Of a stretch of DNA of 64,000 nucleotides, positions 21,747-53,410 are shown piece after piece. Every line of letters begins with the position of its first letter. The stretch's first letter is position 1. The position numbers and the translations under genes were made by a program. A model generated the notes under the pieces. The model searched no databases. It saw nothing but the letters and a program-made list of their open reading frames with translations, and was not told the DNA's origin. The DNA is from Minisyncoccota bacterium (lineage in GTDB: Bacteria; Patescibacteriota; Minisyncoccia; Phycocordibacterales; JAACPR01), in assembly GCA_041674225.1 (NCBI GenBank), contig JBAYWG010000001.1:38501-102500 (forward strand). Direction: 5' to 3'.

Positions 21747-21780
21747 AAAGAAAAAAGAGCGGGACTTGAGGTCCCACTCT
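21747..21780. terminator. Hairpin plus U-tract terminator (copy A of a 34-bp repeat). It ends the minus-strand island operon and the plus-strand rnr gene.
   Basis: The stem is agagcgggac/gtcccactct. On the minus strand the hairpin is followed by TTTTTTCTTTTATTTTTT. Confidence 0.55.
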
Positions 21781-21815
21781 TTGTTAATATTCAAAGGTTC
21801 AATCCTAGGAAGAGT

Positions 21816-23435
21816 TTATTTCAACTCTTCCTCTATCTGACTAACCCACAACGATGGTTTGGAAGCATCCACTTTGACTGGCTTCGTTGTCGAAGAGTCT
21901 GTAACAAAAACCTCAATTGAAGATCCGGCTACAAAGCCTTCACCAACATTTGTCTTCGTTACAATGGTTGAAATCCAACAAAGCCTAGTCGTTCCGTTTA
22001 TCTTTCGAATATACGGCCTATGCTCAGCCACATCATTTGCACTCCAATCAACAGTGTTTGCCTTCTGTTTAATGAAGGTCGCTATTGACGACACGCCAGC
22101 AAGGTTTTCATTCCTTTCCGCGTGTTCATAGTAGTACAATTTTCCAACACCGTCAGCCGGAAAGAACACAGAGACGGACAATCCAGACTTATCACGACTT
22201 TCATCTTGATAAGGCTCCAATGCAAAGTAGTGATACAACTTCGACCTAGCATCCCCTTCGCCGAAGCTAAAGAATGTAGTGAAAGGTTGCTCATTTACAT
22301 CACCCGCTAGATCCGGAATGCGGATATCCCGGTAATGCGTTAGTGGGAAAGGAGCAAGGTATCCATAACGAAACCTGAAGCTGTTCGCAACGTGTCTCGA
22401 TACTTCGTACGGTACAAGATTCTGACCAGCAAGCCAGTCATAATTCTTGATATGCTCCGGACGAATCCAATCTCCTTCTCCAACAAACAATCTCTTAATG
22501 AATTTTAAAAATCCACCTTCTGATTGCTTGATGATTACAACCCCACCGAAATGAGGTCTTGGAAAAATAAATCCGTCCCACTTAGTCAACGTCACACACT
22601 GAACCATCTTTCCATCCGGTCCGGGGATGTACTTCATCGCACTGGGCTCATAGGAGAGAAACCTCCAGAAAGCAAAGCTCTGACGCGCCAAGTAAGACAC
22701 GTCTTTTGTGAAATACATCGTCTCACCTGAATCGAAGTTTACCTTGATCTGGTTTTCTCCACCGAACTCTAGCAACGAACTCTGCCCCGGAAGGCTAAAT
22801 ATCCTATCAACTTTTCCGAAGAATCGTTGATGTGGATAAGCTGGTTCTATGCCCACAGTCCAATGAGGATCACCATCACCCCACGAAACATAGTCCGGAA
22901 CTGGGGTGTGCAATGTATCAGCAATACGAGTATTAGTCGCAGTGTGAATCGAATTCAGTGGATGAATCCGCTCAAATCTCGTCTCTGGCAAAGCTTCCAA
23001 GGAAACTTTGTCCAAAGTTTTGAATTGAGCATACAGTGTGTGGTAATAGTGAGGCTTACTATTTGTTGCAATGACTGCAACTAAGCCTGCAATCACAATT
23101 CCACAGATGAGCAATGTTGGTATGTACCTACCTTTTTTAATTAGTAGGCGCATAACCAAGACAAGAATCACAAATCCCAATATTTCAGGGAGAAGAATTC
23201 TTACATTCACAACGAGAGGTTGAAAGTAGGGCTTGAAAACCCAGAATGTTGGCAAGCCAACGCTCAAGAGCACCAGGCTCTTAACTTTATTCCTCCACAT
23301 AACTGATGCGACCCACCGAAGCAAATGGAAAGGCACCCAAAGGATGCTTCCATATTCTTCCGATCGTCTTCTCCAACGACGACGAGGTTTTTCGACCTCA
23401 GCGTTGGTAGTTGCGGTAATTGTTTCTTCCATCAT
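21816..23435 (-). CDS. Hypothetical membrane-anchored protein (about three N-terminal TM helices plus a roughly 400-aa extracytoplasmic domain)
   Basis: The 539-aa ORF has hydrophobic segments between aa ~40 and 125 and shows higher GC and different codon usage than the neighbouring core genes. Its start overlaps the upstream gene's stop by 4 nt (ATGA). Confidence 0.5.
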   Translation of the reverse strand: MMEETITATTNAEVEKPRRRWRRRSEEYGSILWVPFHLLRWVASVMWRNKVKSLVLLSVGLPTFWVFKPYFQPLVVNVRILLPEILGFVILVLVMRLLIKKGRYIPTLLICGIVIAGLVAVIATNSKPHYYHTLYAQFKTLDKVSLEALPETRFERIHPLNSIHTATNTRIADTLHTPVPDYVSWGDGDPHWTVGIEPAYPHQRFFGKVDRIFSLPGQSSLLEFGGENQIKVNFDSGETMYFTKDVSYLARQSFAFWRFLSYEPSAMKYIPGPDGKMVQCVTLTKWDGFIFPRPHFGGVVIIKQSEGGFLKFIKRLFVGEGDWIRPEHIKNYDWLAGQNLVPYEVSRHVANSFRFRYGYLAPFPLTHYRDIRIPDLAGDVNEQPFTTFFSFGEGDARSKLYHYFALEPYQDESRDKSGLSVSVFFPADGVGKLYYYEHAERNENLAGVSSIATFIKQKANTVDWSANDVAEHRPYIRKINGTTRLCWISTIVTKTNVGEGFVAGSSIEVFVTDSSTTKPVKVDASKPSLWVSQIEEELK

Positions 23436-24079
23436 TTTCTGTTTGTGAATTTTTTGAGAATTTCCATGTCATCTTCTTCTGTGTTTTCGACGACAGGCTC
23501 TTTTTCTTGTTGAATTTGAGGTTCAGTTTCCTTTCCAAACCTTGATTTTCCAGTCACTTTTTTCACAAGTGAATTAGCAGCACCAATGACTTTATCAGTC
23601 ATTACATTTCTTGCTTCCTCAACATCTTGAAAAGCTTCTTTTGCGCCGAACATTAGCTCCTCTTGAAGCTCACCAGTTTTTACTGATTCATGAATCTCAT
23701 CGATCTTATCGATTGCCTTGTCACGACCTCTTTTGATCATGAAAGCAACCGGACCAAAGAGAATCCCCGCAAAAACTAGGATCGCATCCAAAATGGAACT
23801 GAATACCTCGACCACAGGATTTGTTCCCATAAACACCACCATAATGATGTTTGTGAGAGTCGAAATTAAAGCCGCCCAAGCGAACTTGACCGCCAGTTTT
23901 CGATTATAGAGAAACCCAAATTCCTCTTCTGGAGCGAGCTCATCTTTGTGAAAGAGATTGAATCTCTTTCTCTGAAATTTCACACCGTAGACTCTGTCAA
24001 CAATGTAACAGTTGAATCCGATGATGAAGTAAACGAGCAACGAGTAGATGATGTATGTTTTGATTGGAATGGTTTCCAT
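23432..24079 (-). CDS. Hypothetical membrane protein (2-3 TM helices) with an acidic C-terminal tail
   Basis: The 215-aa ORF has hydrophobic helices at aa ~8-30 and ~70-110 and is translationally coupled to the downstream gene. Confidence 0.5.
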   Translation of the reverse strand: METIPIKTYIIYSLLVYFIIGFNCYIVDRVYGVKFQRKRFNLFHKDELAPEEEFGFLYNRKLAVKFAWAALISTLTNIIMVVFMGTNPVVEVFSSILDAILVFAGILFGPVAFMIKRGRDKAIDKIDEIHESVKTGELQEELMFGAKEAFQDVEEARNVMTDKVIGAANSLVKKVTGKSRFGKETEPQIQQEKEPVVENTEEDDMEILKKFTNRK

Positions 24080-24096: not shown

Positions 24097-25374
24097 TTAG
24101 TTAGTCTTTTTTTGTGCCCTCTTCAGGCGGTTTTTTTCAACACATGCTATGGCGTGTTTTTTTCTTGTTTCACTCCACTGCAAGTATTGGTTGAAGAAGT
24201 ACGGCTTATTAAAGGCGTACGTCAATTCACACGGAGACCAAACCAAAGTGACCAAAAGACTCATCAATAAATTGTAGAGAATTGGATCTTCTTCTGATTT
24301 TACTACTGGTCTCAACAAACAAAGTTTCAATTCCTCAGGAATTTTCTCGACATCAATTTCTTCACCATCAACAATTTGATTGTAAAGTTTTTGTAGATCC
24401 CGATAAATCGAAGGAAGATCATCACTTAAAGTTTTTGCGTAAAAATCCTTCTTCGCATCTGTGATTGACGTGATATCAAAAGCTTCATTATTAGCCTCGT
24501 GACCACAAATCACATGTTCCAAGATAGTCTCACGAAGTCGAAGAAGAATTTGTGGCTTTTGTCTGAATACATCCAGACTGAATTCCAACAACCCTTCCTC
24601 TTTAAGTCGAACTAGGACTTCTTCTTTGTCATTAAGAAACATAACATCTCCACGGCCAATGTATTCGGCTTGCGGAGTTTCAAGAATCATTAATGATTTA
24701 GAATTTTTAAGGTTTCCACGAAAAATATAGACACCTCCAAAAGCTTTGATGTGGAAAGAAGAAACTTTCATGTAAGGAATATTCTCAATCACCAATGAAC
24801 GGTAACGAAGATCTCCAAACCCATTTCCACTCTCCTGCAGTTTTTGTCTCAAATCAGAATTCATCCAATTCAATCCTTGACGAATATCTTGGACGAGACA
24901 TCTTTGTGTACGTGCTGCATTCATCAGACTTCCAATCGTGTGAACTATCACGACAACACTGTTGATCATTAAAAGATCTTCCAGAGTCGTATATTGATCA
25001 AACCGTTGATCCATATCAATCCACATTGCAGTCTGAGAAGTCAGGTCTGCAATTTGTTGTGAAGCCGCTCCGAAAAAAGTCTGCATCAAATCCCGATCAA
25101 ACGAATGATGAGGATAATACACAGGTAGTCCTTTTTGCTCAGGTGTTACCACAATCGCATAAGGATTAGCATCACCATTTGAGAGATAATAATTATCTCC
25201 GAAGTCATCTGCTAATTCCGGAGACCAACCTCTACCATCAATGTGAATTTTTTCTCTTTCGGTAGGCTGTCTTCCGACTTCCATCAAACATTTGTTGTAT
25301 AGGCTGATCACGGCGGGACTTGAAATTTCAATTAATCCATTTCCAAACAATCCACTTTTTCTAAGTTGTTCCAT
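24097..25374 (-). CDS. Hypothetical soluble protein (425 aa)
   Basis: An uninterrupted ORF with no recognisable motif that lies 18 nt upstream of the two membrane protein genes on the same strand. Confidence 0.5.
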   Translation of the reverse strand: MEQLRKSGLFGNGLIEISSPAVISLYNKCLMEVGRQPTEREKIHIDGRGWSPELADDFGDNYYLSNGDANPYAIVVTPEQKGLPVYYPHHSFDRDLMQTFFGAASQQIADLTSQTAMWIDMDQRFDQYTTLEDLLMINSVVVIVHTIGSLMNAARTQRCLVQDIRQGLNWMNSDLRQKLQESGNGFGDLRYRSLVIENIPYMKVSSFHIKAFGGVYIFRGNLKNSKSLMILETPQAEYIGRGDVMFLNDKEEVLVRLKEEGLLEFSLDVFRQKPQILLRLRETILEHVICGHEANNEAFDITSITDAKKDFYAKTLSDDLPSIYRDLQKLYNQIVDGEEIDVEKIPEELKLCLLRPVVKSEEDPILYNLLMSLLVTLVWSPCELTYAFNKPYFFNQYLQWSETRKKHAIACVEKNRLKRAQKKTN

Positions 25375-25456: not shown

Positions 25457-25489
25457 AACGAGCTAAATCCCAGGGGGATTTAGCTCGTT
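25457..25489 (-). terminator. Intrinsic terminator after the AAA ATPase gene
   Basis: aacgagctaaatccc-aggg-ggatttagctcgtt forms a 12-bp perfect stem. On the minus strand it is followed by TTTTTTCTTTG. Confidence 0.55.
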
Positions 25490-25507: not shown

Positions 25508-27493
25508 TCAGTAGATAACATTTGGCGAAATGCCAAGATCTGCTGCACGTTTCTGCGCTGCAAGTCGATTAGAGCCTCTTTTCAGCATAGCCGAAATTTC
25601 ACGCTCATCCTCAACCGAACCAATACGGGCAGCATTAACCAGATACGTAATGGCTTCACGGTATATAACATCAGACAATTTCATGCCTTTGACATTATCA
25701 CTCATTAGACCACGCAGTACTTTCAACCTGTCCTCGAATGGTTTTTCAAAAAACAAAGAATGATCATCGAAGAACTCCTCTGGCATATCGAAATCCATCG
25801 CTCGAATATTGACCGCGCTTTGGATGTTTCGAAGGTCGCGAGAACTGAACATTGGTATCACCTTACGCACTTGCATATAGAGCTTTCCAAAAAATTCAGC
25901 TTCGCAAATTTCATGATCTTTCCGAATTTCTTCGAAAATTTCCAAAATCCTTGGATCAGCAATCTGAACTTCACCAGTCTCAATTTCATCCAGAGAAGCC
26001 AACTTGCGCTGACCGCTCATGAACTCGTAACGAGAGATTGGTTTGATGTCCACAAAATCAGGATTACTCTCAGCGAATTTACTCCACCAAAGATAATCTT
26101 GATCAACAAAGTCTTCGACAGACATTGCCCCATCGATAGGAAACTTACTTTGAACTCGCGACATAATCGCAGGATCAATAGTTTCTGGCAAATTGGTCAT
26201 CAAATCGATTGCCCAGTTACCATTGTTGATGGCATATGCACCTTCGGTGTAACGTAGAAATACTCCCATCAGGATTCTTTCACCCTCAGAAACATCATCT
26301 CCACTTCTATTCTTGAAGTAATTCTCTCCATCATCAATCGGACCGTAGATAACTTTGTCACTATCATGGAATCTTTGCATCCACTTTAGCATGTTGGTAG
26401 CACTTTCTCCTTGAAGGCCTGAGACAATGTTGTCCGGCATAGGATGAAATAGGAACGGAATACCACGTTTGTCACACAAGTCCTGCGCATAAGTTGCAGT
26501 AGCCGCAATGATCAAAGATTTTCCAGTTCCAGGATTACCATGACCTAAACAAATTGGAGTTAACCCTTTCATTACATGCCAAGGATTTTTCTTCAATTTG
26601 ACATCATAACAAGCCAATCTCATCGCTTTACGACGCGCAGCGTGTTTTGCGGCCACGTTTCCGACAATGTCGCCGAAATCCACTCGATTGAATTCACGTG
26701 ACACGACCACAACAACCGACTGCATCTCAAAACCATCAATAATAAACTCCTCATCCTCAAGCTTGTAGCTATTGTTTGTGAAGAAGTCCATATACTCCAT
26801 GGCTCCGAGCCTCTTGGACAATTCGTCCAAGACATTCTCGAAATACATCAGACTGAACTTGATAAAAGAAGTCGAATCGCGAACGATATTTCCCCTTTCA
26901 AGATACAGTCCGTAATAATACAGAATACAGTTGGTTGAAACAAAATTGTCAGTCAAATTTATTTCCGGAATCCCTCCGAAAGGCAAATCGATGACACTAG
27001 TTTTATCCGCCTTGTAACTACTCAACTTCCAACGAATGTAAGAAGCGGTAGCAAAAACTGAAGCGAATGTTCCCGTTTGTTTTTGAGAATTGAAAATTTT
27101 CATTTCACTCTCCAACAGCCGACTAGACGTATTCCGAAGAATAAGCTGATCAAGACCAGAAGCTTGGCAGTAGAGTTCGAAAACCCTCATACCAATCATG
27201 AATCCTGTACGAATACTATCCAAGACATAAACAGCGTCTACATCGAGAAGTGATTCGTCACCAAAGATTTTTGCGACAGAATCACGTATTTTCACAGAAT
27301 CTTTTCCCCCACCAAAATCAATCGACGAGGCTGGAAGCCATGTGCCGGGTTGAGCAGCGGTTGAAACCATTTTGTTGGCGGCATCCTTTTTGGGAGTCCA
27401 CTCAACAATCTTGAGCTTCGGATTGACTCGTTCCCTGTGTTCTTGATATTCCGATTTTTTTAGCGGAATGTGTGCTTTCGCGTTAGTTGACAT
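25508..27493 (-). CDS. AAA+ ATPase (classic AAA clade) with a roughly 300-aa uncharacterised N-terminal domain
   Basis: It has Walker A GHGNPGTGKS and an atypical Walker B region KVIYGPIDDGE. The second region of homology, MTNLPETIDPAIMSRV, matches the canonical ATNRPDxLDPALLR. Confidence 0.7.
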   Translation of the reverse strand: MSTNAKAHIPLKKSEYQEHRERVNPKLKIVEWTPKKDAANKMVSTAAQPGTWLPASSIDFGGGKDSVKIRDSVAKIFGDESLLDVDAVYVLDSIRTGFMIGMRVFELYCQASGLDQLILRNTSSRLLESEMKIFNSQKQTGTFASVFATASYIRWKLSSYKADKTSVIDLPFGGIPEINLTDNFVSTNCILYYYGLYLERGNIVRDSTSFIKFSLMYFENVLDELSKRLGAMEYMDFFTNNSYKLEDEEFIIDGFEMQSVVVVVSREFNRVDFGDIVGNVAAKHAARRKAMRLACYDVKLKKNPWHVMKGLTPICLGHGNPGTGKSLIIAATATYAQDLCDKRGIPFLFHPMPDNIVSGLQGESATNMLKWMQRFHDSDKVIYGPIDDGENYFKNRSGDDVSEGERILMGVFLRYTEGAYAINNGNWAIDLMTNLPETIDPAIMSRVQSKFPIDGAMSVEDFVDQDYLWWSKFAESNPDFVDIKPISRYEFMSGQRKLASLDEIETGEVQIADPRILEIFEEIRKDHEICEAEFFGKLYMQVRKVIPMFSSRDLRNIQSAVNIRAMDFDMPEEFFDDHSLFFEKPFEDRLKVLRGLMSDNVKGMKLSDVIYREAITYLVNAARIGSVEDEREISAMLKRGSNRLAAQKRAADLGISPNVIY

Positions 27494-28613
27494 TGAGTAC
27501 TCCTTTTTGTGTGTAGGTTATTGTTTGATGTTGTTTGTAAGGCGAAAAATATTCCGCCGTACGATTGATATTTTGCAGAACACGATGAGGAAGCATTAAT
27601 TTTCTCACAACACTCGTTGCTCGATTTTCATATGCAATCCGGTCATCATTTGGAATGAAGAAAACTTCACGAACTCTACCGCCCCTAGAAAACACTCCTG
27701 AGGTAACTTTACTACCCGTAGAAATTATTTTTTCCGAACGCAGTTCAAGAACGAAATCATTCTCGCCACCGTATTTCCTGAGTAATTCACAAAAATCAGC
27801 ACCACTTTCACTCACGCTTGTCAGCGGAGTAAACAGGGGTCCAATTTGAATCCTCTCCAAAAATTTTGGATGAATAGAATTTGAATGATCATCAATCTGA
27901 TGAATCAAAACTCCGATTTGCGGAACATGTTTACTTGAAAAGGAAACAGTATCCACAAATTGTTTCCAATCATCTCCACCATCCTCAAGGGGCTCACGGC
28001 TTGAATCCTGCTCAAATACCAAACTATGAAAGTAAGGCATATTGCAAATTTCTCCATAAACCGCCCAAGTAAAAATGTATCGACGATGTTCTTTGTCGTC
28101 GGAATCCAATCTTTCAAGACCTCCCATTGTAAAAGGTAGAAACATTCTACTCTCGTCCAAAAGATTCGCGTACTCACTTTTAGACAAATCTGAAAGAACT
28201 TCAGTTGTGTCAGCTCCTGTTGTAAGAAGCTTATCAACCAAAATATTTTTCAGCGTTTCCACACCTGCAACATTACGTGCAAGATCAACCTTTCGATTTA
28301 AATCATTTACAGTTTGGAAAATCGAAATTGCGTGTGGAAAACCAGATTCATTCAAATCCAGAGCCAATTCATGACTCGAATTAAAAGAATACTTGATCTT
28401 CAACAACACAATCGTGTAAAGCAGTCGATCAATCATGGGTTTTAAATCGCGCACAACATGATCCGTCGAGCTCCTCACACCTATCCACTCAAGAACTCGT
28501 CCAAGGACAACAGTCATGAGTATAAAGTATTTCGAGTATTCGTCTGGATTTTCGAGTTGCGCGAAATCTCCACACAATCTTTGTTCATCAATTGTTTTTA
28601 TTTCTCTATTCAA
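27483..28613 (-). CDS. Hypothetical protein (376 aa), translationally coupled to the AAA ATPase gene
   Basis: The ORF has no recognisable motif and overlaps the downstream AAA gene start by 11 nt. Confidence 0.5.
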   Translation of the reverse strand: MNREIKTIDEQRLCGDFAQLENPDEYSKYFILMTVVLGRVLEWIGVRSSTDHVVRDLKPMIDRLLYTIVLLKIKYSFNSSHELALDLNESGFPHAISIFQTVNDLNRKVDLARNVAGVETLKNILVDKLLTTGADTTEVLSDLSKSEYANLLDESRMFLPFTMGGLERLDSDDKEHRRYIFTWAVYGEICNMPYFHSLVFEQDSSREPLEDGGDDWKQFVDTVSFSSKHVPQIGVLIHQIDDHSNSIHPKFLERIQIGPLFTPLTSVSESGADFCELLRKYGGENDFVLELRSEKIISTGSKVTSGVFSRGGRVREVFFIPNDDRIAYENRATSVVRKLMLPHRVLQNINRTAEYFSPYKQHQTITYTQKGVLNVN

Positions 28614-28676: not shown

Positions 28677-28706
28677 GGGGGCGCAGAGCGGATGCTCCAC
28701 ACCCCC
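28677..28706 (-). terminator. GC-rich hairpin plus T-rich tract downstream of the coiled-coil gene
   Basis: The structure is ggggg-cgca-gagc-ggat-gctc-caca-ccccc. On the minus strand it is followed by CTTTTTAGTGAAAAATTTTTC. Confidence 0.4.
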
Positions 28707-28759: not shown

Positions 28760-30118
28760 TTATACACCACCTTCGCCATATGACGTTTCAGAAGATGCAA
28801 AAGGATCGAGACCGTATTGGTCCTTGAAACTTAGCACCATTGCATTAATTAGGTCTCTCGTCCGAGCCGCATTTTGAGCGGAGACAATTTTAACCTCTTC
28901 CAGAGACTTACGACGGCCAGGCATCTGAGCCAGCATGTCTGTCATTGCAGCGTCAGCTGCGACAACCATACTAACCATTGCCTCACGGTTGTTTAGATCA
29001 ATCTGCGCTCCGACTTCATCAAGATTCTTCAAAGCCTCCTGATCACTCAGGAGTTTATGAGAGGCGAGCCGTGCCTTGAAGGTTACGGCTCGTTCTTCAC
29101 AGCCACTTTTCAGCTGGATGATGAAAGACTGCAGGTTGCCGACCAATCTCTGAATAGCTATCGTAATAAGGCGAAACTCTTCAGCGTATTCGGTTTTTGA
29201 ACTCGACAAGACAAATGCATTGTTTCTAGCAACGCGAGCCTCCTCAAGTTCTCTACCAATGTTGGCGATGACTTCTTCCTGTTCGGAATATTCAACGCTT
29301 CCTTTGGTGATATAACCGAGCTTGCTCTCTTCTTCCTGCATTTTGTGTTGGAGATCCGCAAGGATACCTTCACATTCAGTAAGGGCTTTTATAGCCATGT
29401 CTTTCGCCTTGAACACAGACTCCATCTGTTTCGTAGCCTCGACGAGCATCTCCTGTCCATTTGCACGCGATTGCTCGGTAATCTCAATAACTTGACGGGT
29501 ACGCGTAATGTAAGCGTCAAAAGAATCTTCCATTGAAGCTTCCTTAAGTCTTTGGCGCGCACGTCGTTTTGATTCAACCTTGGCTTCTTCGACTTGAGAC
29601 TTCGCATCTTCAATCTTGGGAACAAGGCTGGTGACAGCACGATCACGCATAAAGAACAGATTCGTCTTGTTTTTTGCAAGAATCATCTGCTCTTCAAGTT
29701 GTTTGAGATTGAACTCAGCTTCACTGACCAAAGCAATGTCTTCTGGGTTTTCTTTACCCAAAGAAGCATACCCTTCATTGATTTTTTGAAGAACGGTAGT
29801 CATCGCAAGCATTGCATCTGCAAGATCTTTCTCTTCTTGCGCAACGTTTGCACGTACACCGCCAAGTGTAGAGCTCAGAATCCTTTCCCTCATTTGGGTA
29901 AGTTCTTCTGGAGACATTCCTTTTTTGGTAGTAGCTTCGGAAATCTGTCTATCAGATTCCTGCATAATCTCGACGAGTTTTTGAGAACCCATCAAAATAC
30001 CACCCTCTTCACGTGCAGACACAACTTCCTCGACCCTTTCTTCGACTCGAGTGATGTTTTGTCGATCTTGACTGGATAATGCGTCAAAAACATTTATTGG
30101 TTTTCTTGTTTCTGTCAT
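28760..30118 (-). CDS. All-alpha coiled-coil protein (452 aa), tentatively TelA-like (toxic-anion-resistance family)
   Basis: It is highly charged with heptad-like E/K/Q/L/A content throughout. The N-terminal segment GILMGSQKLVEIMQESDRQIS resembles the conserved FGxxaQxxLxxFSDxxL motif recalled for TelA. It is a monocistronic unit with its own terminator. Confidence 0.4.
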   Translation of the reverse strand: MTETRKPINVFDALSSQDRQNITRVEERVEEVVSAREEGGILMGSQKLVEIMQESDRQISEATTKKGMSPEELTQMRERILSSTLGGVRANVAQEEKDLADAMLAMTTVLQKINEGYASLGKENPEDIALVSEAEFNLKQLEEQMILAKNKTNLFFMRDRAVTSLVPKIEDAKSQVEEAKVESKRRARQRLKEASMEDSFDAYITRTRQVIEITEQSRANGQEMLVEATKQMESVFKAKDMAIKALTECEGILADLQHKMQEEESKLGYITKGSVEYSEQEEVIANIGRELEEARVARNNAFVLSSSKTEYAEEFRLITIAIQRLVGNLQSFIIQLKSGCEERAVTFKARLASHKLLSDQEALKNLDEVGAQIDLNNREAMVSMVVAADAAMTDMLAQMPGRRKSLEEVKIVSAQNAARTRDLINAMVLSFKDQYGLDPFASSETSYGEGGV

Positions 30119-30219: not shown

Positions 30220-30253
30220 AAAGAAAAAAGAGCGGGACTTGCAGTCCCGCTCT
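30220..30253. terminator. Hairpin plus U-tract terminator (copy B of the 34-bp repeat) downstream of the 154-aa gene
   Basis: aaagaaaaaagagcgggacttgcagtcccgctct differs from copy A at only 3 positions. On the minus strand the hairpin is followed by TTTTTTCTTTC. Confidence 0.55.
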
Positions 30254-30272
30254 CAATAGATTTTTGGTCGTT

Positions 30273-30737
30273 TTACTCGGCAGCAAAACGATAGTATGGA
30301 CTCTCAAATCTCCAAGCATAAAGCCCGTGCCAGTAGCAGACCACACTGTCGCCTTTTGCTCTGATGATAGGCACGAGTTCATTTCCGGCAATGTTTCTTA
30401 TCGCCGATTTCCAGCAGGCAACGAAGTTCTCCGGAAATCTTTCACTGAAAGTTTTAGGGGAAAGATCCATAAGTGCAAACCCGTCCTGTAAATTCAGCGT
30501 TCTCTCAATTTCGTCCGGAAGACTTTGAAATCTTTTCAAAATTTCTTTTCCAGAAAATATCAGCTCTCTTTGATCTGTTGTGAAGTATATGGGTTCCAAA
30601 TCAGAAACCTTATAACTCTCAGGTCCCGACTGTTGAAGTTCTGGGTAAAGAAACTCCTTGAAAGACAACAATGGTTTCTCGATTTTTGTTGGATCCAAAA
30701 ATTCACTACGATCAACTTTTATTTCTATAGGTTCCAT
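30273..30737 (-). CDS. Hypothetical 154-aa protein
   Basis: The ORF lies between smc and the island and is followed on the minus strand by hairpin copy B. Confidence 0.45.
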   Translation of the reverse strand: MEPIEIKVDRSEFLDPTKIEKPLLSFKEFLYPELQQSGPESYKVSDLEPIYFTTDQRELIFSGKEILKRFQSLPDEIERTLNLQDGFALMDLSPKTFSERFPENFVACWKSAIRNIAGNELVPIIRAKGDSVVCYWHGLYAWRFESPYYRFAAE

Positions 30738-41202: not shown

Positions 41203-42567
41203 TTAAGCAATTTTATTTGCGTTCTTATTTTGTTCTTTAAAATCTGAGATTTTATTAGAAACAACTTTTAGAGATCTTTGTTTCTTGAAATATAGAGCTA
41301 TCGCTGTACTCCATACTGCGATTAGAGCAAAAATTCCAAGAGCTTTTGCAATATCACTTGCTCCTGTATAAGGAACTTGTGATAGAAAGATTGAATCCAA
41401 AGATGAAAGATTACCTGTTGGTGTACCTAAGTTTGTTCCAGTAGTTACTGTAACTCTTCGGTCATCATCATCATTATCATCGTCATCATCATCCTCGTCT
41501 TCTACACGAACATCAGGACATTCGTCAGTAGCTCGGTCGCCATTAGCGTCACGTACTTCTACTGAAACTTCGTATGTCCCTCTTCGGTTGTAACGAACTC
41601 TTTCTTCGTCATCATCTCCAGAGATATCACCTTTCCATTCAATTCGGTATGATGATCTTCCTCCATCGATTTCAACTTCATAAGTCACTGTGTCTCCTTC
41701 CTCGATTCGAGTATCAGAAACTCTACAGATAATATTTAGATCGTCATCATCGTCATCGTTTGACTGAACAATGTGAGTTGTTGTACTACAATTAACATTG
41801 TTTACACTGCTACTTGCGTTACCAACATTACTACAATGAGCATTAATAGAGTTATCTGTAATAATTACATCGTCATCACTGTAGTTTAGATTTAATCCAA
41901 GAGCGTTCATTCCACCACCTTGTGAACCTCCACCTCCACAACCTGATCCAGAACATCCTCCTCCATTAGAACCTCCACCACCTTGTGAACCTCCTCCATT
42001 ATAACCTCCACCGTTAGATCCTCCTCCAGTGTAACCACCGTTAGAACCTGATCCACCTCCTAGGTAAGAATCGATGTAACTATCTGCTACACCATATCCA
42101 CCATAGTCGTAACCAGCGTAGTCATATCCACCGTAATCGTAACCAGCGTAGTCATATCCACCATAGTCGTAACCAGCGTAGTCATATCCACCGTAGTCGT
42201 AACCAGCGTAGTCATATCCACCGTAATCGTATCCAGCGTAGTCATATCCACCGTAATCGTATCCAGCGTAGTCATATCCACCGTAGTCATAACCAGAGTA
42301 ATCGTATCCACCGTAGTCGTATCCACTGTAGTCATACCCACCGTAATCATAACCAGAGTAATCGTATCCACCGTAATCGTATCCACCGTAGTCGTATCCA
42401 CCGTAGTCGTATCCACTTGATCCATAATCATATCCTCCACCGTAGTCATACCCACCGTAGTCGTATTGAGCTGATGCGTTTTCAATATTGAAAACACCGA
42501 AAGCTGTAAATACTACAAAAAGTAATACGAAAGCGTTAATGATGTTTAATTGTTTTTTGATAATCAT
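41203..42567 (-). CDS. Secreted YDYGG-repeat / Gly-rich / Asp-rich surface protein with a C-terminal VPYTG motif, TM helix and basic tail (candidate sortase substrate)
   Basis: A signal peptide is followed by about 25 copies of (G/S/A)YDYGGYDY, then a GGSNGGG region. An Ig-like segment between poly-Asp runs comes next, and the C-terminus reads VPYTGAS...IFALIAVWSTAIALYF-KKQRSLK. Confidence 0.7.
   Translation of the reverse strand: MIIKKQLNIINAFVLLFVVFTAFGVFNIENASAQYDYGGYDYGGGYDYGSSGYDYGGYDYGGYDYGGYDYSGYDYGGYDYSGYDYGGYDYSGYDYGGYDYAGYDYGGYDYAGYDYGGYDYAGYDYGGYDYAGYDYGGYDYAGYDYGGYDYAGYDYGGYGVADSYIDSYLGGGSGSNGGYTGGGSNGGGYNGGGSQGGGGSNGGGCSGSGCGGGGSQGGGMNALGLNLNYSDDDVIITDNSINAHCSNVGNASSSVNNVNCSTTTHIVQSNDDDDDDLNIICRVSDTRIEEGDTVTYEVEIDGGRSSYRIEWKGDISGDDDEERVRYNRRGTYEVSVEVRDANGDRATDECPDVRVEDEDDDDDDNDDDDRRVTVTTGTNLGTPTGNLSSLDSIFLSQVPYTGASDIAKALGIFALIAVWSTAIALYFKKQRSLKVVSNKISDFKEQNKNANKIA
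42091..42470. repeat. Near-perfect 30-bp tandem DNA repeat encoding the YDYGGYDYxG array
   Basis: The unit gtcatatccaccgtaatcgtaaccagcgta is repeated about 12 times, with only occasional a/g and t/c changes. Confidence 0.8.
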
Positions 42568-42733
42568 GATAATTGTTTTATATAAGATAATTTGAACATT
42601 ACACTAAATTTGTAACGTATTTATATGATAACATTTTTATATACAAATGTCAATCCTTATCTTTACTTTAAATAAAAATGCCTCGCCGTCTGAATTAACA
42701 AACGACGAGGACATTGAGCAAGATTTTCACTTA

Positions 42734-43411
42734 CTATTCCGCAAGGATGTACGGCACAACGACCGTCTCATTCCTCGAAGTACTGAAGACACTGAAGGTC
42801 TTGATTTCCTTACCGCTCGCCAACCGACGAACGTCAGGGTTAGTCGAGGCCGATTCCCCATTTACAGGTCCTCGCGGACCGACGAAGGTTTTGATTTTTT
42901 CGCCAGTATCCGGGTGGGTCCCGTCTTCCAGTCTCCAGCCGACGTTGTCACCGATAGTGACAGGGGTACTCGATTGAGCACCACTACCCCTCACAACAGT
43001 CTTGCGAACCACATGGTAAGCACCAGTGGCAGAAGCCTCGAGTTTCTCACCCGGAAACAACTTGTTGCTGGTAATCGCCTTGAAGATCTTCGCGTCTGCA
43101 GGGTCTGGGTCATGCATCAACCCCAACATAAAGACTTCGCCTTCATGCGACCACCCAGCGAACGTGTCCACCGGTTCTCCAACCTTGGTGTACATGTCGC
43201 ACAAGCGGATGATCTGAGGCCAAGCGTTACAATCGGAGCCATAAGCCTCGACGAATTTTTGCCACAAATCCTGTTTCACCAAGCCAGGCTTGACGTCGAG
43301 GACAACCGAAGGATTCGCGTCAGGCATCTTAACGACACCTTGAGCCTGTGAATTACCGGTGATAAAAAATACCACCGCCGTCATGATGATTGCAATTGCT
43401 GCGTTTTTCAT
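42734..43411 (-). CDS. Secreted hypothetical protein (225 aa, signal peptide)
   Basis: The N-terminus MKNAAIAIIMTAVVFFITGNSQAQG is a clear Sec signal peptide. The region has higher GC, and a terminator hairpin sits downstream at about 42681-42712. The opposite-strand ORF at 42647-43351 is judged spurious. Confidence 0.5.
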   Translation of the reverse strand: MKNAAIAIIMTAVVFFITGNSQAQGVVKMPDANPSVVLDVKPGLVKQDLWQKFVEAYGSDCNAWPQIIRLCDMYTKVGEPVDTFAGWSHEGEVFMLGLMHDPDPADAKIFKAITSNKLFPGEKLEASATGAYHVVRKTVVRGSGAQSSTPVTIGDNVGWRLEDGTHPDTGEKIKTFVGPRGPVNGESASTNPDVRRLASGKEIKTFSVFSTSRNETVVVPYILAE

Positions 43412-43521
43412 AATAATCTTAATCTTGTTTTTGGTTTGTGAATGATTCTCTGATTCCCAAATAGCATAGCATATTATACGGATTTGTCAACAGTCACTAA
43501 ATACCCCATACATAAAGAAAA

Positions 43522-43554
43522 AACCGTAATCGCGCATTACACACGATTACGGTT
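43522..43554 (-). terminator. Intrinsic terminator after the FGEIRGG-repeat gene
   Basis: aaccgtaatcg-cgcattacaca-cgattacggtt forms an 11-bp stem. On the minus strand it is followed by TTTTTTCTTTATG. Confidence 0.5.
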
Positions 43555-43562
43555 AGTGATTT

Positions 43563-44600
43563 TTACCTCCTGATTCCAGACATCATTCCATGAATCATCT
43601 GCCCTAGGGAAGGATGATTCTGATGAGAGTCTCTTCCACCTCTTTCACGTTGAAAGTCTTGTAGACATCTCTCCCGATAGTCAGGACGATAAGGTCCTGT
43701 ACGATACATTGGTGACCGCACCGGTGATCGATTATTTGTTGTAAAGAAATTATTTCTTGGCGCCATATGATTCGCCATAAAGAAATTATTTCTCGGCTGC
43801 TCTCTGTAAGAAGTACGGGGATGTGTCGTTGTAAAACAATCATCTCTCGGTAACTCTCTGTAAGAAGTACGAGTAGGTATCACTTCCGCACGATAAATAG
43901 GTTGAGTCCGAACATGTTCTCTCACAACTGGTCGTTCACAAGTAACTTGAGGTTGTCCTATTTCTACACACCCAAGATTCAAGGATGACTCACAATTACC
44001 AACGGTATTTGTCACACCACGAATTTCTCCAAATGTTGTAGAAGCAGCACGACGATTGTCGTGAATGATTGCTGTTCTTCCACGGATTTCTCCGAAGGTT
44101 ACATCCACACTACGACTATCCTCATGAATCATCGTTTTGCCACCACGGATTTCTCCGAAGGAAACATCGACATTTCTGTGGTCTTCACAAATAACGGTTG
44201 CACCGCCACGGATTTCACCGAAGGTTACACTAACACTACGGCTATCATCTTCAATAATAGTCATACCACCGCGAATTTCTCCGAAATTCACAACTGAACT
44301 GCGTTCATCCCGAACAATCTTTATTCCACCATAAACTTCTCCAAAGGTCACGAGGTATTGCTCGGGCTCAGGAGGTTCATCTCCACCGCTCTTGTCCCAG
44401 GGTATACCTGGTGTAGGAACGGGTTTAATATACGGATCACCAAAAAGTGGTATTGGGGGGATTTCGTCGGACTTTTCCGCACCAGGAACTGGTGGAGGAA
44501 GAATGCGACCATCGTCATCAGGCTTTACATTTCCATCATCCGAACTGACATTCACCGACATCATACCAAGCGTGAAAAATATCAAGTAAGTAATTTTCAT
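43563..44600 (-). CDS. Secreted protein with six 22-aa tandem repeats (TFGEIRGGxTxIxEDxRSVxV) and a Pro/Arg/Tyr-rich C-terminal region
   Basis: A signal peptide and Pro-rich linker are followed by the repeat block, then a Cys-containing segment and an R/Y/P-rich tail (SYRELPR.../SYREQPR...). Confidence 0.55.
   Translation of the reverse strand: MKITYLIFFTLGMMSVNVSSDDGNVKPDDDGRILPPPVPGAEKSDEIPPIPLFGDPYIKPVPTPGIPWDKSGGDEPPEPEQYLVTFGEVYGGIKIVRDERSSVVNFGEIRGGMTIIEDDSRSVSVTFGEIRGGATVICEDHRNVDVSFGEIRGGKTMIHEDSRSVDVTFGEIRGRTAIIHDNRRAASTTFGEIRGVTNTVGNCESSLNLGCVEIGQPQVTCERPVVREHVRTQPIYRAEVIPTRTSYRELPRDDCFTTTHPRTSYREQPRNNFFMANHMAPRNNFFTTNNRSPVRSPMYRTGPYRPDYRERCLQDFQRERGGRDSHQNHPSLGQMIHGMMSGIRR
43990..44350. 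repeat. Imperfect ~66-bp tandem repeats (6 copies) encoding the FGEIRGG 22-aa units
   Basis: ccacggatttctccgaaggt..., ccgccacggatttcaccgaaggt... and ccaccgcgaatttctccgaaat... recur at about 66-bp spacing. Confidence 0.7.
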
Positions 44601-44694: not shown

Positions 44695-45411
44695 TTACCC
44701 CTTAATCACAGCATCCACCACCCACCTATCACTCTTAGTTCCAAAAGAATTACATGTAGAAATTGTTAGTCTTCTTCCACTTCTACTCAAATCTATAAAA
44801 GCACTCTCGGCATCAGCTTGATACACCTTCTCAATAACATAAGTGTATTTTTGACCGTTCGCATATAAAATAATCTCATCACCTATTTTTGACTTCTCTA
44901 TTCCATTAAAAGTTTTGTAAGCTTGATTGATCACGACTGGCAAACCACTACTGTGTCCAAAAATAAAAATATTTCCTTTTTCAATAAAACCAGAGCCAGG
45001 ATAATACACAGCACCTTTTTGCAAAGCAGAATCCAAGACATCAATCATCGGACTTTGTGGTTGCAAAACGACAGAATCAATTCCAACTGAAGGAATTAAA
45101 ATTCGTGAAGGTTTAGATAATTGTGTCTCTGTTGGTGCCACTGCCAATTGCGAATTGTCTTCACTTCTCAAAATTCTTCCTTCTCGATCACGCACATAAC
45201 TCACCTCTTCTAGAGAATTCGGATCGCTAATAGAGGTATTTGTAGAATAATTTATTTTTTCTTTCTCTTCTTGCTTATTAGTAGTAGTAAATTCTTTTGG
45301 AATTAAATTTTTAGGAAGTAGCCCAAATAATGCAAAAACAAAAATAGAAACTAAAAAAATTCCAGCAGCTTGGGTCCAGAAAAGTGCGTTCTCGTTTTTT
45401 TTAAGACTCAT
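44695..45411 (-). CDS. Sortase-family transpeptidase
   Basis: An N-terminal TM anchor is followed by catalytic-region motifs: FIFGHSSG (His), TISTCNSFG (Cys in a TxxTC context) and a downstream Arg. Confidence 0.7.
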   Translation of the reverse strand: MSLKKNENALFWTQAAGIFLVSIFVFALFGLLPKNLIPKEFTTTNKQEEKEKINYSTNTSISDPNSLEEVSYVRDREGRILRSEDNSQLAVAPTETQLSKPSRILIPSVGIDSVVLQPQSPMIDVLDSALQKGAVYYPGSGFIEKGNIFIFGHSSGLPVVINQAYKTFNGIEKSKIGDEIILYANGQKYTYVIEKVYQADAESAFIDLSRSGRRLTISTCNSFGTKSDRWVVDAVIKG

Positions 45412-45518: not shown

Positions 45519-45604
45519 GCGTAGGTGGCAGAGCGGTCAAATGCAGCGGACTGTAAATCCGCCGACTTCGGTCTACGGGGGTTCGAATCCCTCTCTACGC
45601 ACCA
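45519..45604 (+). tRNA. tRNA-Tyr (anticodon GTA), with encoded CCA
   Basis: Cloverleaf by hand: acceptor gcgtagg/tctacgc, anticodon stem gcgga/tccgc, loop ctGTAaa, a long variable arm and the T-loop ttcgaat. Confidence 0.85.
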
Positions 45605-52805: not shown

Positions 52806-52877
52806 GGCGTGGTGGTGAAGAGGTAACACCGGAGTTTGCAAAACTTCTATGCGCAGGTTCGATTCCTGTCCACGCCT
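52806..52877 (+). tRNA. tRNA-Cys (anticodon GCA)
   Basis: Acceptor ggcgtgg/ccacgcc, anticodon stem ggagt/acttc and loop ttGCAaa; the molecule is 72 nt. Confidence 0.8.
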
Positions 52878-52899
52878 CAAGGTTGATTAACAACCGAAT

Positions 52900-52981
52900 G
52901 CCCGGATGGCGGAATTGGTAGACGCCCTCGACTTAAGATCGAGTATCGTAAGGTGTGTGGGTTCGAGTCCCGCTCCGGGCA
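52900..52981 (+). tRNA. tRNA-Leu (anticodon TAA)
   Basis: Acceptor gcccgga/tccgggc, anticodon stem ctcga/tcgag, loop ctTAAga, a long variable arm and the T-loop ttcgagt. Confidence 0.85.
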
Positions 52982-53004
52982 CAAGCTGATTTTTTCAGTG
53001 ATAT

Positions 53005-53077
53005 CCGCCTATAGCTCAGCTGGTAGAGCAGTCGCCTCTTAAGCGAACGGTCGTAGGTCCGAGTCCTACTAGGCGGA
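53005..53077 (+). tRNA. tRNA-Lys (anticodon CTT)
   Basis: Acceptor ccgccta/taggcgg, D-arm agctcagctggtagagc, anticodon stem tcgc/gcga with loop ctCTTaa, and T-arm gtagg-tccgagt-cctac. Confidence 0.8.
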
Positions 53078-53239
53078 CAAGCGAGCAAATAAGGAAGTGT
53101 GTTTTACATTTCCTTATTTGCGAGCGCGGACGCCTTGCACGAAGTTCAGGCGGACAAGCGAGCAAATAAGGAAGTGTGTTTTACATTTCCTTATTTGCGA
53201 GCGCGGACGCCTTGCACGAAGTTCAGGCGGACAAGCGAG
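53072..53239 (+). repeat. 77-bp direct tandem repeat (2.2 copies) that begins with the last 6 nt of tRNA-Lys; each unit contains a 15-bp palindromic hairpin
   Basis: Units start at 53072, 53149 and 53226. The third unit is truncated after ggcggacaagcgag. Each unit carries gcaaataaggaagtgt-gtttt-acatttccttatttgc. Confidence 0.85.
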
Positions 53240-53293
53240 TGAAATATGTACAAGCACTGGCGCATTTTATTTTAACTGATAAAATCGCTACAT

Positions 53294-53375
53294 GCCGAGA
53301 TGGCGAAATTGGTAGACGCACTTGCCTTAGGAGCAAGCGGGGTGACCCATGGAGGTTCGAGTCCTCTTCTCGGCA
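53294..53375 (+). tRNA. tRNA-Leu (anticodon TAG)
   Basis: Acceptor gccgaga/tctcggc, anticodon stem cttgc/gcaag, loop ctTAGga, a long variable arm and the T-loop ttcgagt. Confidence 0.85.
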
Positions 53376-53410
53376 CAAATATATACAAATTACATCCAAA
53401 TATTTTCAAA

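Follow-up and report, generated by a model that had tools for sequence, protein, structure and literature searches.

The DNA analysed here, referred to as the window, is a stretch of 64,000 nucleotides (nt) from a Minisyncoccota bacterium (GenBank assembly GCA_041674225.1, contig JBAYWG010000001.1, positions 38,501 to 102,500). On its minus strand, at 25508-27493, it carries an open reading frame (ORF) of 661 amino acids (aa), which a sequence-only reading had described as a classic-clade AAA ATPase with an atypical Walker B motif, translationally coupled to a 376-aa protein at 27483-28613. The ORF is a real, very divergent classic-clade AAA ATPase and the third gene of a conserved cassette of six genes. 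The two-gene coupling was thus seen correctly at the overlap of gene 2 with the AAA gene but understated the extent of the system; the helical protein and the membrane proteins with which an association had been suspected all lie within the conserved cassette.

For the comparison of loci, 82 were fetched: two homologues led to L001-L002, and a scan that took a single genome for each GTDB species supplied L003-L082. Searches with the window proteins (phmmer) and an unsupervised all-against-all clustering of ORFs agreed on six recurring families with constant strand and order. The genes of the window and the presence of their families among the 82 loci are as follows.

28760..30118, minus strand: gene 1, charged helical protein of 452 aa (MFA7193350.1); position 1, present in 71-72 loci
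27483..28613, minus strand: gene 2, protein of 376 aa, translationally coupled to the AAA gene; position 2, present in 74-75 loci
25508..27493, minus strand: gene 3, AAA ATPase of 661 aa (MFA7193348.1; Pfam, hhalign, Foldseek); position 3, present in 81 loci
24097..25374, minus strand: gene 4, DUF6638 protein of 425 aa (MFA7193347.1; Pfam PF20343); position 4, present in 74-75 loci
23432..24079, minus strand: gene 5, small protein of 215 aa with three transmembrane (TM) segments by prediction; position 5, present in 66 loci
21816..23435, minus strand: gene 6, protein of 539 aa with three N-terminal TM segments by prediction; position 6, present in 64-65 loci

The G+C content at third codon positions (GC3) was 0.32-0.44 for the six genes and an adjacent 154-aa orphan ORF, against 0.22-0.26 for the neighbours; the flanking housekeeping genes include trmD, rnr, smc, rnc and nusB. 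By its composition, the cassette is thus an island of foreign DNA within this Paceibacterota genome.

The AAA ATPase and its Walker B variant

The 661-aa ORF starts with ATG and is 100% identical to MFA7193348.1, titled 'MAG: ATP-binding protein [Candidatus Paceibacterota bacterium]' at NCBI (locus tag series WC087_00280-00310). All of the AAA motifs first read from the letters are present, namely GHGNPGTGKS (residues 317-326), KVIYGPIDDGE (380-390) and MTNLPETIDPAIMSRV (432-447). Residues 318-453 scored 36.4 bits with Pfam PF00004 (E=8.5e-9), above its gathering threshold of 21.2, and phmmer against PDB sequences gave weak matches to SKD1/VPS4B and Rpt4 (E ~3e-3). Alignment of the family profile (28-member alignment) with human VPS4B by hhalign reached 94.6% probability (E=6.5e-8) over residues 263-454; the reference sequences used with hhalign (human VPS4B, E. 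coli PspA and yeast Snf7) were entered by hand. The motifs paired in the alignment (family / VPS4B) were GKPGTGKS / GPPGTGKS, IVSTFQGGS / LVSKWLGES, PIDDAEN / FIDEIDS, TNLP / TNIP and AVLSRIQxR / AIRRRFEKR. The AlphaFold2 (AF2) model of the protein, with a predicted local distance difference test score (pLDDT) of 84.4, matched p97/Cdc48 D1, Msp1, NVL, Rpt and AFG3L2 in Foldseek with E ~1e-7 to 5e-7, a probability of 1.00 and 15-21% identity. The assignment to the classic clade is made because Pfam, phmmer, Foldseek and hhalign agree. The protein stands outside the Vps4, p97, Msp1, FtsH and CbbX families, and the check for a well-known housekeeping AAA family turned up none: the NCBIfam scan gave no match and the search of PDB sequences with the family profile nothing at E<=1e-5. 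No TM segment was predicted in the AAA protein. Its parts are listed below.

26708..27493, minus strand: N-domain, residues 1-262, mostly a helical bundle (AF2 secondary structure)
26066..26707, minus strand: AAA core, residues 263-476 (alignments and residue counts)
26516-26539, minus strand, within the AAA core: Walker A, residues 319-326
26321-26347, minus strand, within the AAA core: Walker B, residues 383-391 (PIDDGEN)
Within the AAA core, minus strand: pore loop 1, residues 356-364, SGLQGES in the window copy and STFQGGS in the family
Within the AAA core, minus strand: sensor 1, T433-N434, and the second region of homology (SRH), S445-R446..K450
25511..26065, minus strand: lid and C-terminal helices (AF2 model, alignments)

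The N-terminal region had been taken for a domain of roughly 300 aa of no recognisable kind. It indeed matched nothing outside its own family, and its size was refined to a helical domain of ~262 aa plus a linker in the AF2 model. A phmmer search with the N-domain against 1.84 billion representative proteins gave 97 matches, in all listed cases but one at the N-terminus of a protein, most of them ~650 aa long and the shorter ones probably fragments. Judged by these matches, the domain is exclusive to this AAA family. The exception, P0246 (486 aa), has the domain at residues 211-431, which may reflect fusion to the upstream gene or a frameshift in the gene call. A weak match of residues 29-169 (window 26990-27410) to repeats of the Gloeobacter phycobilisome linker Glr1262 (PDB 9k9w) was set aside as probably due to chance: its E-value was 0.0016 for the whole sequence and 0.12 for the best domain, and the family profile search did not reproduce it. 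In the C-terminal part, the lid has an insertion at residues 477-531 and contains the helix 'FSSRDLRNIQ', which is invariant in the family, and past the ATPase core and lid follow ~95 aa of helices with a long helix at 606-652 (AF2).

Homologues of the AAA protein form more than 1600 clusters, are full-length at ~650 aa and share ~40% identity across phyla. Residues were counted in 253 non-identical members aligned to the family hidden Markov model (HMM), distant proteobacterial members included. Walker A (GNPGTGKS) is invariant at G322, G324 and K325 (253/253 each), as are the sensor-1 residue N434, R446 of the SRH and both R552 and N556 of the lid ('SSRDLRNIQ'). At position 450, 250/253 members have R or K. 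Of the two adjacent arginines of the Vps4 type, only one is kept. The Walker B Asp D387 is found in 252/253 members. The following position, 388, holds the catalytic Glu in canonical proteins; since the PIDD of the family aligned to the IDE of VPS4B in both phmmer and hhalign, this position here holds Asp, which is the case in 250 of the 253 members, the other three having Glu. Position 390 is Glu in 243/253 and Asp in 9/253. The residue of pore loop 1 is F, Y or W in 241/253 (95%), Leu in nine members including the window copy, and Met in three. R552 would lie at the sensor-2 position, as judged by a match of 'FSSRDLRNI' to the classic lid motif 'GFSGADI' made by eye and with no tool; that position is normally Ala in classic-clade AAA proteins.

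The Asp-Asp Walker B (D-D-x-[ED]) is therefore a family signature and not a defect of the window copy. The early doubt about hydrolysis was right in that the catalytic Glu is replaced by Asp; it does not hold as a sign of decay in this copy, since 250/253 relatives have the same residue and the Walker A Lys, sensor-1 Asn and the SRH and lid arginines are invariant. Likewise, the alignment of homologues confirmed conservation of the Walker B Asp and of the SRH arginine R446, but not of a Glu at the catalytic position. The three members with canonical D-E indicate that position 388 tolerates the catalytic residue, and in the family D-D occurs together with a preserved sensor 1, Arg finger and pore loop, which argues for a working rather than a decayed ATPase.

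The same replacement could be read in another way, namely that the D-D Walker B binds ATP without turnover and that the AAA protein merely organises its partners as a nucleotide-gated scaffold. Asp in place of the catalytic Glu in 250/253 members speaks for this, as does the window copy in that it also lacks the pore-loop aromatic, and the D2 domain of NSF, with 'DDIE', is a precedent for an AAA domain that binds ATP and does not hydrolyse it. The sensor-1 Asn, SRH Arg, lid Arg and pore-loop aromatic are, however, usually lost in non-catalytic AAA domains, whereas here the first three are invariant and the aromatic is kept in 95%. Moreover, this is the sole ATPase domain of the protein and of the cassette, and three members carry D-E. 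A scaffold role is considered quite improbable.

Partner proteins of the cassette

The 376-aa ORF ends with TAA at 27485-27483, downstream of the AAA start codon (ATG at 27493), so that the two genes share the 11 nt ATGTCAACTAA; AGGAG lies 7 nt upstream of the AAA ATG. Both the 11-nt overlap and the view of the 376-aa protein as a dedicated partner were borne out: gene 2 is syntenic in 74-75/82 loci, where it usually lies within ~25 nt of the AAA start or overlaps the AAA gene. The TTG at 28613 is a better start call than that of JGI gene P0124 (344 aa), because Y26, Y29 and F30 are invariant in homologues and lie upstream of the JGI start at Met33, so that the JGI call omits them. The family comprised 155 matches, all of them single-domain proteins of ~350-390 aa. 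The AF2 model of the 376-aa protein (pLDDT 86.2, predicted template modelling score 0.85) has a helical N-terminal domain and an alpha/beta C-terminal domain of long strands; with this model Foldseek found no match in the PDB (best E=0.41, TM-score <=0.18) or among the BFVD viral models (best E 0.012, TM-score ~0.1). The label 'DUF2971' that UniRef gives to one homologue was not reproduced by Pfam.

In the gene 4 protein, Pfam PF20343 covers residues 9-412 of 425 (E=5.5e-31), and the NCBI label is DUF6638 as well. Its 1084 homologues are all single-domain proteins of ~411-425 aa, and the family profile had no match in the PDB. The idea that the AAA, 376-aa and DUF6638 families are paralogues was dismissed, as hhalign showed them to be unrelated. 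Rosetta-stone fusions of the 376-aa protein, DUF6638 or the AAA N-domain were not found, each having a single architecture throughout.

The 452-aa protein of gene 1 is conserved in its C-terminal half (SK.EYAEEF...LKS..EER...) and ends in a conserved tail 'F..YG[IL]DP..SS..SY' (F..YGIDP..SSFF.Y in the alignment). No TM segment was predicted, there was no consistent Pfam, NCBIfam or PADLOC match, and the profile search of the PDB with the family returned only coiled-coil noise such as keratin.

This helical partner, together with the AAA protein, had been taken to suggest a Vps4/ESCRT-III-like or PspA-like system. Taken as homology, that is, as a true bacterial relative of these membrane-remodelling systems, the suggestion could draw on VPS4B (SKD1), which ranks with the top sequence matches of the AAA core, on the helical partner and membrane proteins in the same operon, and on the long C-terminal helix of the AAA protein. 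The sequence comparisons went against it. In the hhalign comparison with full-length VPS4B only residues 263-454 aligned, and the N-domain (~260 aa, exclusive to the family) did not align to MIT; 23 members of the 452-aa family gave 0 matches to Snf7 or PspA_IM30 in Pfam; and with E. coli PspA and yeast Snf7 as references, hhalign of this family reached probabilities of 0.5% and 0.7%, respectively. In addition, p97, Msp1 and Rpt matched the AAA core as well as Vps4 did. Published bacterial associations of PspA or Snf7 with AAA proteins also differ in architecture: in a survey of phage shock protein (PSP) systems, bacterial Vps4-like genes adjoin TPR/6TM proteins and PspA adjoins a protein with two AAA domains (PMC11237479). 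At the level of sequence, the homology is largely refuted, and we regard it as highly unlikely.

The gene 5 protein has an acidic or Pro-rich low-complexity linker after its TM segments and ends in a C-terminal motif D[WP]..h..[FY]..K, which reads EILKKFTNRK in the window and takes the forms DWRxGVxxFLxK or DPxxhhxRYTxK in the family; among the alignment members there was no consistent Pfam match. Its predicted role is that of a membrane tether, with the tail on the cytoplasmic side. In both gene 1 and gene 5, the conserved terminal motifs follow disordered linkers. The gene 6 protein contains a conserved Pro/Gly/Trp-rich domain of about 415-420 aa without a Pfam or PDB match, which is predicted to be extracytoplasmic by the positive-inside rule, consistently in 19 members. 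In Chitinophagales and Saprospiraceae the gene 6 homologues are much longer (751 and 696 aa instead of ~540; L010 13377-15632 and L029 12505-14595) and may contain an additional domain. When all members of the partner alignments were scanned with Pfam, no family other than DUF6638 was matched consistently, and profile searches of PDB sequences with the five partner families yielded nothing but coiled-coil noise.

These membrane proteins could mean that the ATPase is a motor of the Msp1/ATAD1 or Bcs1 type, which extracts, inserts or exports the membrane proteins of the cassette or a cargo, the outside domain of gene 6 being the business end. Msp1 ranks with the top structural matches (TM-score ~0.5, normalised to the target), the cassette has two conserved membrane proteins, one of them with a predicted outside domain, and Sinorhizobium has a non-homologous membrane protein in the same position. 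On the other hand, the AAA protein itself is without a TM segment, the four-gene core occurs without adjacent membrane genes in several lineages, and no secretion-system component, signal peptidase or transporter domain was found in the cassette. The matches to p97 and Msp1 are equally weak (E ~1e-7) and concern the generic AAA core only. Such a motor is considered unlikely.

Distribution of the cassette and its local context

Among the pattern matches listed in the GTDB species scan, at least 550 of 599 encode a relative, and the cassette was found in at least 550 species of at least seven phyla. In Bacteroidota the hosts are many genera of Flavobacteriaceae (including cultured Dokdonia, Maribacter, Ulvibacter, Aquimarina and Leptobacterium), Chitinophagales and Saprospiraceae; further hosts belong to Verrucomicrobiota, Desulfobacterota (Desulfonema magnum), Deinococcota (Trueperaceae) and Gammaproteobacteria, and within Patescibacteria to Paceibacterota, Saccharibacteria and Moraniibacteriota. 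A variant of the AAA protein with 19% identity in the N-domain keeps all six cassette genes. No seventh gene recurs in the flanks of the 82 loci beyond close relatives, and the boundaries between gene 2 and the AAA gene and between the AAA gene and DUF6638 are overlapping or close in many loci.

More distant AAA relatives (22-27% identity) were found with tblastn against plasmid records in Vibrio, Sinorhizobium, Rhizobium and Shinella. Those of Vibrio and Sinorhizobium also match Pfam PF00004, and in both genera the four-gene core is present in the same order (HMM E 1e-25 to 1e-109). In S. meliloti the core is followed by a DUF2333 protein with two N-terminal TM segments and a ~340-aa domain, which showed no homology to the gene 6 family; a membrane partner has thus been recruited twice independently. 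In the S. meliloti Ak57 locus (L084 11061-12806), a gene with an endonuclease domain and an ISRm16 transposase split the AAA gene from DUF6638; the record, labelled pSymB and 3.7 Mb long, seems to be the chromosome under a wrong plasmid label. The cassette consists of a cytoplasmic four-gene core, to which two membrane proteins are added in most lineages. It has spread horizontally among lineages, and the sharing of flanking genes by several genera of Flavobacteriaceae points to vertical inheritance there.

None of the seven island proteins (the six of the cassette and the 154-aa orphan) matched a model of NCBIfam or PADLOC, and their PHROGs scan gave nothing usable. In the literature searched for DUF6638, PF20343 and DUF2333, no paper deals with the system and none names DUF6638. 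The cassette as a whole is without a described counterpart in the searched literature, NCBIfam or PADLOC.

A distribution of this kind also brings anti-phage defence or abortive infection into consideration, in which the AAA protein and its cofactors would sense infection and the two membrane proteins would damage the membrane. Defence systems often combine TM proteins with an ATPase, and the cassette is self-contained, lies in variable neighbourhoods, is patchily distributed across phyla and is compositionally foreign in this genome; a few flanking genes match defence models (AriA/GajA-like, MADS, methyltransferases). These were, however, only a handful among 133 flanking proteins of 35 loci, one of them an ordinary DprA, in what was a rough defence-island test without a genome-wide background. 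The seven proteins gave 0 matches in PADLOC-DB 2.0.0 at E<=0.1, a collection of systems described up to 2023, and domains of known effectors (nuclease, protease, TIR, Sir2 or others) were not found in the cassette. Synteny with common flanking genes is stable across many Flavobacteriaceae genera, and the ~40% identity across phyla with its many invariant residues would make the AAA protein unusually conserved for a defence gene. Relatives of the cassette were found in none of 50,697 phage records and none in IMG/VR; the matches in plasmid records were on non-mobilisable megareplicons only, so that the cassette is absent from phages, viral contigs and mobilisable plasmids in these collections. 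A defence function is therefore regarded as improbable.

In the window, the following further features lie in and around the cassette.

21754..21782, minus strand: terminator hairpin after gene 6, one copy of a ~35-nt direct repeat
30228..30254, minus strand: the other copy of this hairpin, directly upstream of gene 1
28677..28706, minus strand: terminator-like hairpin between genes 1 and 2 (13 bp, 9 GC, T-run)
25457..25489, minus strand: terminator-like hairpin after the AAA gene (15 bp plus T-run)
25450-25423 and 25409-25382, minus strand: two promoter-like sites ahead of gene 4
30273..30737, minus strand: orphan ORF of 154 aa, GC3 0.39, followed by its own terminator copy

The direct repeat consists of a hairpin and T-tract, AGAG[CT]GGGAC..CAAGTCCCGCTCTTTTTTCTTT, of which only two near-identical copies occur in the 64-kb window (0 expected by chance). 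They enclose precisely the six conserved genes and may be a scar of insertion or duplication or a re-used terminator. The hairpin between genes 1 and 2 may be an attenuator that raises the expression of gene 1 above that of the downstream genes, and the internal hairpins and promoter-like sites suggest three transcription units here. The 154-aa ORF had no homologue in the 82 loci and no significant family match and stands outside the conserved cassette; it may have arrived together with it.

Elsewhere in the window, three ORFs without a Pfam match (454, 225 and 345 aa; 41203-44600) adjoin a sortase gene (44695-45411). The middle one (42734-43411) has a GC content of 0.52 and a GC3 of 0.60 in a genome of 36% GC and is overlapped by an ORF on the opposite strand (42647-43351). 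The three may encode sortase-dependent surface proteins or be another foreign insert. A cluster of four tRNA genes on the plus strand at 52806-53376 (Cys, Leu-taa, Lys-ctt and Leu-tag) and a separate tRNA-Tyr gene at 45519-45604 (plus strand) are unrelated to the cassette.

Proposed function and comparison with known systems

Taken together, we propose that the AAA protein is a membrane-tethered, substrate-threading remodeller that acts on its operon partners, a reading to which we give a probability of roughly 50%. The invariant Walker A Lys, sensor-1 Asn, SRH Arg and lid Arg and the pore aromatic in 95% of members lead to the view of an active, ring-forming remodeller that threads its substrate, probably slowly, with Asp388, possibly helped by Glu390, in place of the usual catalytic Glu. 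The N-domain would dock two coupled cofactors, the 376-aa protein and the DUF6638 protein, in the way that Cdc48 docks Ufd1-Npl4, while the flexible tail of the 3-TM protein of gene 5 and its conserved terminal motif would hold the complex at the cytoplasmic face of the membrane. The most likely client would be an assembly of the 452-aa helical protein, the conserved C-terminal tail of which could serve as a handle, as Vps4 grips the tails of ESCRT-III. This likeness to Vps4 is a possible analogy of mechanism, with no homology found. The more specific proposal, a machine like Vps4/ESCRT-III or NSF/SNARE in which an AAA ring disassembles a membrane-tethered helical assembly coupled to an extracytoplasmic domain, built with novel partners and spread horizontally from Proteobacteria to Patescibacteria, is put forward tentatively, as a possibility that is more doubtful than probable.

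Several points weigh against the remodeller proposal. In classic AAA proteins, hydrolysis is normally slowed or lost when the catalytic Glu of Walker B is replaced by Asp. The window copy is moreover an outlier of its family: in the 28-sequence alignment it is off at 21 near-invariant columns, whereas the next highest member deviates at 12, most members at 1-4 and its closest relative (51% identity) at four. The changes cluster in pore loop 1 (T359G, G363E, E366T and R367N, with Leu360 for the usual Phe/Tyr), in the loop after Walker B (N392Y, E394K, R398G, G400D, V405E and E407I) and in the SRH (Q438T, V443I, L444M and R450K). The mode of action of this copy may differ, or selection on it may be relaxed. 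Leu or Met in the pore loop also recurs in other divergent subclades, and the deviations may represent adaptation rather than decay; they still weaken mechanistic inference for this copy. With regard to the partners, the 452-aa protein may be more than a polymerising coiled coil because it has strongly conserved polar blocks, and the contacts proposed between the proteins are drawn from synteny and sequence features only. The loci of Trueperaceae, Desulfonema and Vibrio have no adjacent membrane genes, so that the link to the membrane is not universal, and the terminator and promoter calls on which the transcription units are based are consensus matches only.

Classic-clade AAA proteins drive membrane scission, vesicle fusion, and protein extraction and degradation, and few characterised bacterial members are known, among them FtsH, Mpa/ARC, Cpa, CbbX-like proteins and EccA. 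The family described here is new and strongly conserved, with its own N-domain, a family-wide Asp-for-Glu variant and five partner genes, and it reaches from marine Flavobacteriaceae, rhizobia and vibrios to the ultra-small Patescibacteria. It raises the questions whether Asp can serve as catalytic base at the active site of a classic AAA protein, what is done by partners such as DUF6638, without a sequence match in the PDB, and the 376-aa protein, the model of which has no Foldseek match, and for which membrane process bacteria this different require an AAA motor of their own. Since the core genes occur in the genetically tractable Sinorhizobium meliloti and Vibrio, experiments on them are feasible.

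Compared with known systems, the AAA protein shares its core fold with Cdc48/p97 and Msp1/ATAD1, its best Foldseek matches, and like them has Walker A, sensor 1 and the SRH arginine; a pore loop lies in the Ser-x-aromatic-x-Gly position, with an aromatic residue in most family members and Leu in the window copy. As in Cdc48/p97 with Ufd1-Npl4, there is a separate N-domain, and the genes for the partners are co-encoded and translationally coupled. In contrast to Cdc48/p97, there is one AAA domain, the Walker B motif is D-D-x-E and not D-E-x-D, the N-domain is restricted to the family, the candidate cofactors are without detectable relatives in the PDB (by Foldseek for the 376-aa model, by sequence for DUF6638), and the cassette contains no ubiquitin-like system. 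With Vps4/ESCRT-III (archaeal CdvC/CdvB) and PspA/Vipp1 the cassette has in common a classic AAA protein of a single AAA domain, co-encoded with a tailed helical protein, and membrane association; it differs in that the AAA protein has no MIT and that the helical partner, at ~440 aa, is unrelated in sequence to Snf7 and PspA. Compared with ESCRT in particular, three or four further conserved proteins are without a counterpart, and the catalytic Glu is replaced by Asp. The Pfam entry for DUF6638 consists of a name only, and its obligatory linkage to the AAA protein and the other cassette genes comes from the present synteny analysis. Regarding the Walker B variant, NSF D2 has D-D and Bcs1 has E-D. 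The D2 domain of NSF is a second, structural domain beside an active D1, whereas in the cassette no ATPase exists besides the D-D domain, in which sensor 1, Arg finger and pore loop are retained, and Bcs1 is anchored in the membrane, unlike the cassette AAA protein with no TM segment. The ATPase is thus a variant of the classic-clade AAA proteins, and a new kind of machine is a realistic possibility for the complete system.

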